NCBI GenBank assembly: GCA_963764165.1
Contig: CAVXRD010000001.1
Location: 224,001-288,000 of the forward strand
Direction: 5' to 3'
Length of the DNA stretch: 64,000 nucleotides
Origin: an uncultured Verrucomicrobiae bacterium
GTDB lineage: Bacteria > Verrucomicrobiota > Verrucomicrobiia > Limisphaerales > Palsa-1400
In this document: positions 17,962 to 61,368 of the stretch, in pieces
Position numbering within the stretch: position 1 is the first letter of the stretch
Layout of the letters: each line of letters opens with the position of its first letter
The notes under the pieces: model-generated
Database searches by the model: none
Told to the model about the DNA's origin: nothing
What the model saw: only the letters and a program-made list of their open reading frames with translations
Made by a program: the position numbers and the translations under genes

Positions 17962-18035
17962 TGGAGCGGGTGAAGGGAATCGAACCCTCGTCTCAGGCTT
18001 GGGAAGCCCACATTCTACCATTGAACCACACCCGC
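17962..18035 (-). tRNA. tRNA-Gly(CCC)
   Basis: GCGGGTGTGGTTCAATGGTAGAATGTGGGCTTCCCAAGCCTGAGACGAGGGTTCGATTCCCTTCACCCGCTCCA; cloverleaf with encoded CCA. Confidence 0.96.
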
Positions 18036-27854: not shown

Positions 27855-27981
27855 ATTACCCTTTTTTCGCGCAGGCTCAAGCACAGATGTCGTTTTTCCC
27901 CAAAAAGGACGGCGGACAAAAATTCTTCGCCGGCCGGAAGGGCGAAGACTGTCTTTGCGTTTGGCATTGCTTAGCCGGGAC

Positions 27982-28193
27982 GACGCAGTCGGATTTGGGA
28001 GCGCTATCGTCCCGGTCGCTCTGGCCGGCCCACGCGAAAGCGTCTTCCCAATAATTTGTTCAGATCTCTCGCCGGACAGTTCAGCAGATCTTTTGCGGTC
28101 ACCGTTTGGTGAAATGCCTTTGCGCGAAGAGTTTTCGGCGGGACGCCGAAAACAGCGGTCGATACGACCGCGCTCCCCAAATCCAACTGCATC
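27982..28193. repeat. REPIN/MITE-like inverted repeat, second family
   Basis: GACGCAGTCGGATTTGGGAGCG...CGCTCCCCAAATCCAACTGCATC; shares GTCCCGGTCGCTCTGGCCGGC with 41896-42057. Confidence 0.7.
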
Positions 28194-28343
28194 GTTCCGG
28201 CTTACGCATGCTGCCTTGAACTCACCCGCGCTTCCAAATACCTGAGTGAAGCATTGAAATACATATAGTCTCCGAAAATCGGTAACATCGGCTGCATCGT
28301 TGATTCCCGGAGAGGTTAGATTGGTTCGATTTCGACGAATATG

Positions 28344-28707
28344 ATATAATCTCCAAAAAGGGGCAACATCCGCTACACTGTTGATTATAAGACATTTAAG
28401 GGGCAACACTTGCCGCTACAGAGCCGCTACAGACCCGCTACATTTCTTCCGAGATGGCAAAGCGCAAATAGTGAGGACACGCGCCTTGTGGCGAAAACCA
28501 AGGGTGCAATAGGGTGCAATAGCGAGCAATGCCCCAATCACGATTTATTTAGTCGCCCTTCCCGCCCGCTCGTTAAAAAACAACCGCTCCCTGGCGTCGG
28601 AATCCGCAAACTGTCAAAGAACACGCCCTGACGGCGGCAGGTGGGAACATAAGGCCGAAAAGTCCCCTTTGTCAATTAAGACAGGAATTGCACGCTTCTG
28701 TGGTATT
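28344..28707 (-). other. Dispersed non-coding element, copy A (promoter + boxA + phased repeats + IHF-like site)
   Basis: Block-wise homology to 58962-59405, including an identical 34-mer ATATAATCTCCAAAAAGGGGCAACATCCGCTACA. Confidence 0.85.
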
Positions 28708-28808
28708 CACTTCGGGATCTGCGGGCGGGCTTTCAGGGCAAGCATCGCGTTCCACCGAAAAGGGCGAGGAACGGGGCGGCTGGACACATTTGAGCAAAAT
28801 GTGTTTAC

Positions 28809-58961: not shown

Positions 58962-59405
58962 ATATAATCTCCAAAAAGGGGCAACATCCGCTACATCATT
59001 GATTATCAGGCGTTTAAGGGGCAACAAAAATGGCAACAAGGTGGCAACAAACCCGCAACATTTTCGGAACACAAGGGGATTTCTACACCAAGGAAACAAA
59101 AGGGCACGAAGAATTCTGTCGCGCACGCCATTGATTTTGGGAGCGCAACCATCCGCAGATATTGGGCGATGGCGACGAGATTTTTGCCGTGAAAACCAAG
59201 GGTGCAATAGGGTGAAATAGCGTGCAATGCCCCGATCACGACCTATTTAACCCCTGTGCCTGATGGCCCGTTAAAAACAACTGCATCGCTGCCGCGGAAA
59301 TCCGCAAAATATCAAAGAACACGCCTCGGGGGGCGACAGGGAGAAAAATAAGGCCGAAAATCCCTTGCGTCAAATAAGATTGTAATTGCACTCTTACGTG
59401 GTATT
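58962..59405 (-). other. Dispersed non-coding element, copy B
   Basis: Same ordered blocks as 28344-28707, with a longer unrelated central spacer. Confidence 0.85.
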
Positions 59406-59698
59406 TCGTGGCATGACAAACGAAACATCGATTGCTCAGGGGGGACTGGAAGCAAAAACATCGCCGGGGGCGCCCGGGGGCAGGAGTGTTGCGGGCGGAC
59501 GGGCCGCGCTCGCATGAGCAAGATTGCGCTGCTATTCCACTGAAAACAGCGCCCCCACCATCGCACGATTACGCATTTTTCTTTGATTCATCGCCGCGAC
59601 TTGCGATAAGAATGGAATGGCAACGGACAACAACACCAAATCCTCCGGCGATTCGGGCAACATGGCCGAGACAAAGCCGCCATTCAGTTAGCTGTCGC

Positions 59699-60502
59699 AT
59701 GGAGGTTCTGCAACTTACCGCCACGCAATTCATCAAGCCGATGTCAACGGGGAGAAACCGTCCACTCTTGCTTGGATGTGAGGACAACGCTGCCAACTCC
59801 TTTGAAGTGGTGGTAAAATTTCGTGGCAGAGAAATGGACGCGAGGGCGCAGATTGCAGAGTTGGTTACAGCGCAACTGGCCGACGACTTGGGATTGCAAG
59901 TTCCGCAAGCGGTCGTGGTGGACGTCCCAGCCGGATTCGAAGCCATCTTCGCCGAAAAAGAATTGGCAGAGATGGTGAGAATGAGCCCCGGATTAAATTT
60001 CGGTTCCGTAAACATTGGTGCGGGCTTCACGACATGGCCACCCGGGCGCAATCCCGTTGGCATGCAACGGGATCAGGCAGCGGATGTATTCGCCTTCGAC
60101 ACGCTCATCCAGAATCCCGACCGACGCGCATCGAATCCAAATTTGTGGGCACGATCGGACAAAATCGGCGTCTACGATCACGAGCAGGCCTTTTCGTTTC
60201 TAGCTCTGCCGATTATTGGCGGCGCGGCCAAGCCGTGGGAGGCGGCGACATTGGCCAAGACCTTCCAATTTTTGGAACAGCATCTATTTTACCGGAGCCT
60301 GCGCGGCGGTCGATTGAATTTCGGCCCATTCATGGAAAATTTGGGCAAGATTACAGACGGACAACTGCAAGGATATTTCGACATGGTTCCGCCCGCCTGG
60401 AAATGCCAAGGCGATTTATGCGAGCAAATCGTTGCATATTTGTCTGAGGCTCGCAATCACAGGGAAACTTTGATACAGTTCATTAAACACTTGCTACGAT
60501 GA
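59699..60502 (+). CDS. HipA-family (HipA_2-like) Ser/Thr kinase
   Basis: GRNRP, VVKF, AELV...LGL, FDTLIQNPDRRASNPN, YDHEQAF. Confidence 0.85.
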   Translation: MEVLQLTATQFIKPMSTGRNRPLLLGCEDNAANSFEVVVKFRGREMDARAQIAELVTAQLADDLGLQVPQAVVVDVPAGFEAIFAEKELAEMVRMSPGLNFGSVNIGAGFTTWPPGRNPVGMQRDQAADVFAFDTLIQNPDRRASNPNLWARSDKIGVYDHEQAFSFLALPIIGGAAKPWEAATLAKTFQFLEQHLFYRSLRGGRLNFGPFMENLGKITDGQLQGYFDMVPPAWKCQGDLCEQIVAYLSEARNHRETLIQFIKHLLR

Positions 60503-61368
60503 AAACAAATTATAGCACCATCATCCTGCGTTACGTTCACGATGTGGTGACCGGCGAGTTTGCCAACATTGGAGTGGTGCTCTATGCGCCTGACCAGCGG
60601 TTTTTGGAGGCGCGCTTCACCGCCTCGTACGAACGGCTCAACGCCATCTTTCTCAAGATCGATCATCTGCATTTCCGCGCGTTGATGCGTTACATGACCC
60701 ATCGGTTCGAGGAATTGGGCGCGGAAATCCGCAACGAATTGCATATTCCCCCGGTAAATGCCTTGTCGGAAATTGTCAAAAAGGTTTTGCCGCCGGACGA
60801 TAGTTCGCTCCAATGGTCGCAGCAAGGCGGCGGCATCACCGAGGACCCGGCGCGCGTGTTGGGCGAAACATATAAACGATTAGTCGAGCGCTTTGTCGCG
60901 GGCGCAACACAAGTGAGCCGCAGCGATGAGGAGGTCGCCAAACCTTTTAAGGCCAAGCTGGGCAAGATGGTCGATAAGCTTTCGGAGAAGACGATCAAGA
61001 CAAAGGACTACCAATACGATTTCCAATTCGCGTGGAAAAATGACGTTTGGCATCTCTACGAGCCCGTTTCATTTGATTTGGTTGACCCAAACAGCATCCG
61101 GGAAAAAGCAAATCGCTGGCTTGGCCGCGGCGTGGCGCTGCACGATGCGGAAGAGAGCTTTAAAATTCATTTCATCCTCGGCGAACCACGCCAGGAAGGC
61201 ACGAAGGCGGCGTTTGAGAATGCACTGCATTTGCTGCAAAAGATTCCAAGCCAGAAACATCTAGTCCGCGAAAACGAGGTGGACAGCTTTGCGGAACGTG
61301 TCTCGGAAGAGATCACAGCCCACGATGCCGAGGCACTTCCATTACGCGACAAAGCAAAACAGACATGA
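60499..61368 (+). CDS. DUF3037 domain protein
   Basis: YSTIILRYVHDVVTGEFANIGVVL; start overlaps the kinase stop (ATGA). Confidence 0.85.
   Translation: MKTNYSTIILRYVHDVVTGEFANIGVVLYAPDQRFLEARFTASYERLNAIFLKIDHLHFRALMRYMTHRFEELGAEIRNELHIPPVNALSEIVKKVLPPDDSSLQWSQQGGGITEDPARVLGETYKRLVERFVAGATQVSRSDEEVAKPFKAKLGKMVDKLSEKTIKTKDYQYDFQFAWKNDVWHLYEPVSFDLVDPNSIREKANRWLGRGVALHDAEESFKIHFILGEPRQEGTKAAFENALHLLQKIPSQKHLVRENEVDSFAERVSEEITAHDAEALPLRDKAKQT

Follow-up and report, generated by a model that had tools for sequence, protein, structure and literature searches.

The unannotated element seen in two copies (A and B) belongs to a repeat family of 131 loci in its own genome (referred to as G000), as found by an nhmmer profile search, and this family is assembled from three blocks, tentatively referred to as L, M, and R, which largely keep their order and strand and come from two different sources. 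Based on sequence comparisons, block L very probably originated as one arm of a RepAM/DUF3631 replication origin, and blocks M and R as the array and promoter region of a solo gene encoding a small-terminase-like protein (terS). The repeat appears to work like high-copy, modular, non-autonomous mobile DNA, and not like an intact RepAM origin, a satellite, or an attachment (att) site. The initial annotation described a single unit and raised the possibility that only two copies existed; both copies are real and their block order and architecture stand, but they are two among 131 loci, and the unit is a fusion.

Composition of the repeat family

The blocks, as delimited in copy A in the window, i.e., the whole stretch of 64,000 nucleotides that was analysed (L, 28344-28445; M, 28493-28544; R, about 28594-28707), gave 121, 83, and 52 matches respectively in profile searches of G000. 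Among the 131 loci, 52 consist of L only, 32 of L, M, and R, 17 of M and R, 16 of L and M, and 14 of M only, and R is accompanied by M in all 49 loci that contain it. For blocks no more than 1 kb apart, the most common adjacent orders are MR (47), LM (33), LL (17), and ML (13), besides nine others; only three of 122 adjacent pairs lie on opposite strands, the blocks otherwise sharing one strand. The features of the window are as follows.

28263..28310, + strand: truncated extra L block upstream of copy A, with two GTAACA-type units and the start of the core (nhmmer, L model positions 1-48)
28344..28445, + strand: copy A block L, probable single arm of a RepAM/DUF3631-type origin array (sequence, gene-tail alignment)
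28446..28492, no strand: copy A variable spacer, 47 bp (sequence)
28493..28544, + strand: copy A block M, GAAAACCA and three 10-bp-period units at 28504, 28514, and 28524 (sequence)
28594..28707, no strand: copy A block R (consensus matches only)
28749..28772, + strand: ISL3-type right-end remnant to the right of copy A (sequence)
58962..59063, + strand: copy B block L (sequence)
59064..59190, no strand: copy B variable spacer, 127 bp (sequence)
59191..59242, + strand: copy B block M, GAAAACCA and three units at 59202, 59212, and 59222 (sequence)
59293..59405, no strand: copy B block R (consensus matches)
59413..59533, + strand: broken 5' stub of a Mu gp27-like small-terminase gene, right after copy B (by comparison with intact paralogues)
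59534..59551, + strand: partial ISL3-type right end where the copy B terminase stub stops (sequence)

Copies A and B align block by block, and each sequence feature initially read from them was confirmed at its position. The identical 34-mer is present at 28344 and 58962; the core matches the IHF consensus WATCAR-N4-TTR exactly in copy B (59004-59016) and with one mismatch in copy A (28386); the four GCWACA units are spaced 12, 11, and 11 bp (28403, 28415, 28426, and 28437 in copy A; 59021, 59033, 59044, and 59055 in copy B); the variable insert, estimated at about 50 versus 130 bp, measures 47 and 127 bp; and GAAAACCA with its three 10-bp units, as well as the promoter and boxA-like blocks (as consensus matches), are found in both copies. 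Beyond the four units noted, two further hexamer units, 9 bp apart, lie inside the 34-mer (28363 and 28372 in copy A; 58981 and 58990 in copy B). A scan likewise found no tRNA on either copy, and no Rfam family matched (copy A searched down to E 5). The description as ORF-free fails at copy B, which continues into what is left of the 5' part of a small-terminase-like gene (59413-59533), frameshifted near 59478 and cut off after a KIAxL motif.

In block R of copy A, a leftward promoter-like site has its -35 at 28675 and a -10 ending at 28646, with a boxA-like box at 28614-28622 and a rightward promoter-like site near 28682-28710. The corresponding leftward site in copy B has its -35 at 59373, a -10 ending at 59345, and a boxA-like box at 59312-59320, and the rightward site ends near 59407; directly 3' of the latter is a gene pair encoding a HipA-like kinase and a DUF3037 protein (59600-61368).

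REP-like palindromic repeats lie at 27955-28200, between rpoN and copy A, and similar repeats fill many of the inter-block spacers of the family. In five relatives, rpoN is head to head with a hydrolase gene and the element is absent; since this hydrolase gene is 780 kb away in G000, copy A sits at a rearrangement break. An empty-site search for copy B found FUSC relatives just 36-43% identical, in a different context. Elsewhere in the window are a TrwC relaxase/helicase (3-2675), which may be part of an integrative element, since integrase matches lie a short way before the window (C1:196-217 kb), and a Group II intron D1-D4-4 fragment (Rfam RF02003, 17047-17190) near a tRNA-Gly (17962-18035).

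Block L and the tails of DUF3631 genes

In the available text of PMC3218068, DUF3631 is the domain of RepAM, the replication initiator of pMEA300, and in that of PMC2440964, the 3' end of the gene for RepAM holds multiple 8-bp repeats to which RepAM binds, the proposed origin. All four DUF3631 matches in G000 are within 2 kb of an L, and two of them have L at or just past the stop codon. For solo DUF3631 genes, L starts 4 bp past the stop codon in G000 and G018 and lies at the 3' end in G013 and G016, in each case on the opposite strand. Tails with at least four units of the L hexamer family were found in 20 of 40 DUF3631 genes (3 from G000), compared with none of 40 matched gene-body controls.

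Full-length DUF3631 genes from the same order encode a primase domain and, in the three cases looked at, have an integrase as a neighbour. Their tails have units at about 25, 33, and 77, followed by inverted units at 94, 138, and 146, forming a fixed two-arm palindrome; the hexamer alphabet of these tails is that of L, and L aligns with one arm. L itself consists of direct units only, with a GTTGA-N3-TCAAC core and no inverted arrangement, so that a hairpin is impossible. CTTGAT, the pC194-like and nick-like motif between the repeats of pMEA origins, has a counterpart in only two of 17 left and one of 17 right arms of the full-length relatives; TTGAT lies in the L core.

The solo RepAM-like protein (G000 C2:1440675-1442126) shares 33% identity with a primase-DUF3631 protein over the ATPase/DUF3631 part of the latter. 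It lacks the primase part and retains the nucleotide-binding P-loop ATPase motifs (read by eye) and the DUF3631 domain; a sequence search of the PDB with this protein gave no match at E 1. For block L, the initial annotation's idea of an iteron origin served by a protein encoded elsewhere has support, the block very probably going back to the tails of RepAM/DUF3631 genes. In a second DUF3631 subfamily (G000 C2:2985453-2987427; L049; L050), a GTCACA-type L is located upstream, not downstream, of the gene.

The L core pattern occurs 5 to 41 times per genome in six of 31 family genomes, all six of which have a DUF3631 match; orphan pattern matches number 41, 39, 14, 8, and 5 in five other genomes from other genera. 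The pattern is absent from all 13 genomes without a DUF3631 match (Fisher p 0.03, with kin that are not independent) and also from 12 of the 18 with one, and no match was found in viral contigs. The hexamer units vary in concert within an array (pair identity 0.70 vs. 0.33 in shuffles), and several hexamer spellings coexist within one genome. In the 15 L copies viewed in G018, most share a short left extension and have nested right ends.

Phased direct repeats around an IHF site resemble arm-type sites, and 39 of 73 distinct L cores are within one mismatch of IHF on the forward strand (background 1.2%), both of which would suit arms of a tyrosine-integrase att site, as initially considered. 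Such an identity is very improbable, given that the same architecture and hexamer alphabet recur in DUF3631 gene tails, that the four DUF3631 loci are more than 100 kb from any of 22 integrase matches, that one of 130 loci is within 1 kb of a tRNA (random, 1.3%), and that no paired attL/attR was seen. Nor does any integrase ORF recur at the 131 loci.

Blocks M and R and the solo small-terminase gene

R runs into the start of terS in 29 of 50 copies, compared with 0.4% of random stretches. Of the alternatives named in the initial annotation, a coding remnant is partly borne out, as M and R are parts of a coding cassette and what remains of it comes after these R copies. The recurring ORF after R encodes 369 aa. 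Three loci have it intact, five have a shortened, split, or frameshifted version, and elsewhere it is reduced to a stub; among the matches listed, broken terS copies are in the majority. In profile searches, the protein hits PHROG 426 (terminase small subunit; E 1.3e-7) and Pfam PF11985 (Phage_Mu_Gp27/DUF3486) at E 4.1e-5 with a score of 24.5, below the cut-off of 28. A Foldseek search with its structural model (pLDDT 84.9) yielded nothing in PDB or BFVD at E 0.001; a DUF3486 model ranked fourth in BFVD (E 0.057). A gp27-like profile finds 4467 clusters at 50% identity, and a 343-aa protein (P0046) has four matches to the N-terminal part of this profile.

A TerL-like ORF follows terS in 35 of 36 phage relatives (of 32 scanned, ten match a TerL profile at E 1e-12, and the rest are linked to those by BLASTP), compared with a TerL match directly downstream in four of 46 chromosomal terS loci of relatives; terS is solo in G000. 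The chromosomal gp27-like gene is multicopy, with matches in 15 of 30 relatives and up to 12 per genome. Period-10 arrays were found beside 22 of 46 distinct chromosomal gp27-like genes of relatives and beside none of 36 phage ones, and control periods of 7, 8, 11, 13, and 14 gave 4, 3, 0, 0, and 3 respectively at the same chromosomal genes. The M array of copy A is of the type present at solo gp27-like genes, and at two G014 loci an M-like array, a TCAAAGA box, and a gp27-like gene follow in the same order.

The back-to-back promoter-like sites and the boxA-like box are near-invariant in R copies that are otherwise 22% diverged. A TTGACN-type -35, a 16-18 bp spacer, and a TA..T -10 are kept in 48 of 50 copies, and a boxA-like box lies 20-24 bp downstream of the leftward promoter-like site in 45; these calls are consensus matches, and a search with 16S primers found no rRNA gene from which the host's own boxA could be read. 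Transcription leftward from R through M and L could yield a structured non-coding RNA, for which these same sites would serve, but this is hardly credible: neither copy matches Rfam, the consensus fold of 47 leader sequences reaches -0.57 kcal/mol with two pairs, and the conserved units are helically phased direct repeats. As a separate observation, one genome (L161, L091; G006:C8) has this promoter-like module ahead of both a solo TerL and a solo terS, i.e., the module can carry different cargo.

A large terminase is also conserved in these bacteria. In an orphan cluster of G000 (C2:560400-564300; L073:5400-9280), an apparently intact Mu gp28-like TerL (C2:562768-564276) is accompanied by small genes, a terS-like gene, and a gene for a lipase-fold protein, with no portal adjacent; G006 has up to four copies. 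TerL proteins 61-77% identical were found in nine of 18 family genomes searched, across several genera, with a fragment in a tenth; all TerL-bearing genomes have gp27-like copies, none of the six genomes without gp27-like copies has the TerL, and three genomes with gp27-like copies lack it. Solo TerS copies share a C-terminal "RI.QILG" motif with the TerS beside the conserved TerL. G000 also harbors a Mu-like prophage with a Gam-like protein, TerL, portal, and major head gene (C4:322000-340000, L072).

The repeats may be packaging addresses: M, and perhaps L, would be pac-like, bound by the solo TerS, which would recruit the orphan TerL, with a resident Mu-like prophage packaging pieces of the chromosome for transduction. 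The PHROG match, the TerL following terS in phage relatives, the co-occurrence of TerL with gp27-like copies, and the shared C-terminal motif all agree with this, as does an analogy with P1 pac, described in the available text of PMC10028697 as hexamer arrays with an IHF site. We nonetheless consider it quite unlikely. No portal is adjacent to the TerL cluster in most genomes viewed, although a putative portal-like frame follows one TerL in G018, and a query with the prophage portal found nothing in G001, G003, G004, G006, G013, and G018; arrays are absent from the phage terS genes; and transduction alone makes no new copies within a genome.

The fusion of L with M and R looks specific to the species of G000, judging from DNA-level searches. 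Copy B matched two of 30 relatives, weakly; an M 15-mer has 52 matches in G000 and none in four congeners; an M-type pattern gave one match in five relatives, and a strict L pattern matched two of five; and the 11-bp hexamer array was found at one of 46 terS loci of relatives. None of the genomes searched has a single parent that combines L, DUF3631, M, R, and terS, nor did a DUF3631 gene turn up between M and L. A further strand-biased module of G000 (m11/m12/m15; 27 of 27 on the same strand) is often near M or L, and congeners have a comparable motif ahead of their terS genes.

The host might also retain the many half-origins, arrays, and truncated proteins as decoys, titrating or poisoning the Rep and terminase proteins of satellites and phages that invade it. 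A decoy would need or use sites for binding that lack a full origin, proteins deprived of their primase or partner, and a choice of hexamer spellings such as coexist here. The expansions are patchy, as with the M 15-mer, and most of the listed terS copies are broken; the picture is more like selfish spread than kept function, and we regard decoy immunity as improbable.

Routes of spread and comparison with known systems

Some L copies evidently move inside an ISL3 MITE of about 318 bp, as judged from its sequence. An L lies inside 12 of the 19 paired elements with ISL3 ends, and eight of these 12 have an 8-9 bp target duplication; several of these MITEs sit at one position inside another L, and just one longer element shares their ends, coding for a split ISL3 transposase. 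ISL3 end cores lie no more than 600 bp from a locus in 68 of 148 cases, and end remnants are found to the right of both window copies (28749 and 59534). Pairs of copies with high identity break off at block borders. The entire family might accordingly be inert leftovers of RepAM elements and terminase cassettes, moved only by ISL3, other IS, or REP transposases and homogenized by gene conversion. Such passive hitch-hiking is fairly unlikely in our estimation: the ISL3 MITE route directly accounts for 12 of 121 L hits, about a tenth, and at 86 of 131 loci a stretch of 600 bp to either side is free of ISL3 end cores. It also leaves unexplained the same-strand order of the blocks, the co-occurrence with solo DUF3631 genes, and the near-invariant promoter boxes.

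Movement of the fused L-M-R unit as a whole is likewise unsupported, since L and R distances are uncorrelated across 27 fused loci (Mantel r 0.04), a weak test in that the two halves of R are also uncorrelated (r 0.09). No terminal inverted repeats or target duplication were seen by eye around the whole unit in the flanks viewed. On the left of L, repeated DNA extends for a median of 38 bp, compared with 209 bp on the right (86 loci), the rightward extension being partly REP-like palindromes and IS ends, so that placement by other enzymes is possible. The left neighbour gene points away from the locus in 98 of 131 cases (expected 56%, p 7e-6), while the orientation of the right-hand gene is not significant (77 of 131, p 0.10). 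By replichore, 34 loci are leading, 54 lagging, and 43 flat (genes 496 and 475), with a skew too flat for a bias call.

Our preferred explanation, a tentative one at slightly less than even odds, is that the family spreads as non-autonomous mobile DNA driven in trans by the primase-less RepAM-like ATPase. We infer this main route because of the co-occurrence of L with DUF3631, the concerted hexamer change, the shorter left extension, and the upstream-of-gene bias. The solo RepAM-like protein would bind the hexamers, and IHF would bend the core; from the single arm, copying would proceed to one side only, beginning at a fixed end and yielding pieces of variable length that would re-integrate, mostly just upstream of a gene. 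In this species, L would have joined the M-R-terS cassette, after which terS would have decayed in most copies, with gene conversion and IS insertion reshuffling the blocks.

A bolder proposal, which we consider unlikely, is an undescribed protein-free class of element in which a domesticated RepAM ATPase without primase would fire a half-origin in trans, the half-origin being fused to a 10-bp array read by TerS, such that about 100 sites would be amplified locally and handed to a host-kept terminase. If true, this would be a dispersed, self-spreading gene-transfer system made from satellite and phage parts; were the packaging reading true, soil and peat Verrucomicrobiota-type bacteria would carry many built-in start points for gene transfer. 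In any case, an otherwise unexplained high-copy intergenic repeat is now tied to named proteins and thereby testable. The data suggest half an origin becoming a dispersed mobile repeat, by a route unlike that of transposon-end MITEs and REPs, and the natural panel of hexamer spellings paired with DUF3631 proteins would be useful for studying how RepAM initiates replication. We found no report of the RepAM link of L or of the L-M-R fusion in the literature searched, most subscription papers being outside it.

Several known systems share parts of this architecture. The terS protein resembles the Mu gp27-like small terminases by family match (PHROG 426; PF11985/DUF3486 below the cut-off), whereas the gene here, unlike its phage relatives, is solo, present in many copies, and equipped with its own promoter and a 10-bp array that those relatives lack. 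Phage pac sites such as P1 pac, in the available text of PMC10028697, combine phased short repeats with an IHF-type site near terS, as is the case here. Phage satellites and hitcher elements, as far as described in the available text of PMC10803314 (PICMI) and PMC11389934, similarly hold origin and packaging parts that rely on helpers in trans; in contrast to PICI/PICMI satellites as described there, the family has no integrase, no fixed attachment site, and no intact rep inside, and is dispersed in about 130 copies.

MITEs and Correia-type repeats are short, high-copy, intergenic, and promoter-bearing. The family resembles them in being short, high-copy, and intergenic with back-to-back promoter-like sites, but the L-M-R unit is modular and lacks terminal inverted repeats in the flanks viewed, and only the nested ISL3 element of about 318 bp is a true MITE.

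The closest counterpart of L is the RepAM origin of pMEA300-type integrative elements (DUF3631, PF12307), in which short identical repeats lie at the 3' end of DUF3631, as in the source tails of L. Compared with that origin, L is a single arm with extra 11-bp-phased units and a GTTGA-N3-TCAAC core and without a hairpin; most copies, A and B included, have no rep gene, and most also no integrase or tRNA site; and, going by the source names of TerL relatives, the host of L here is a Verrucomicrobiota-type bacterium.
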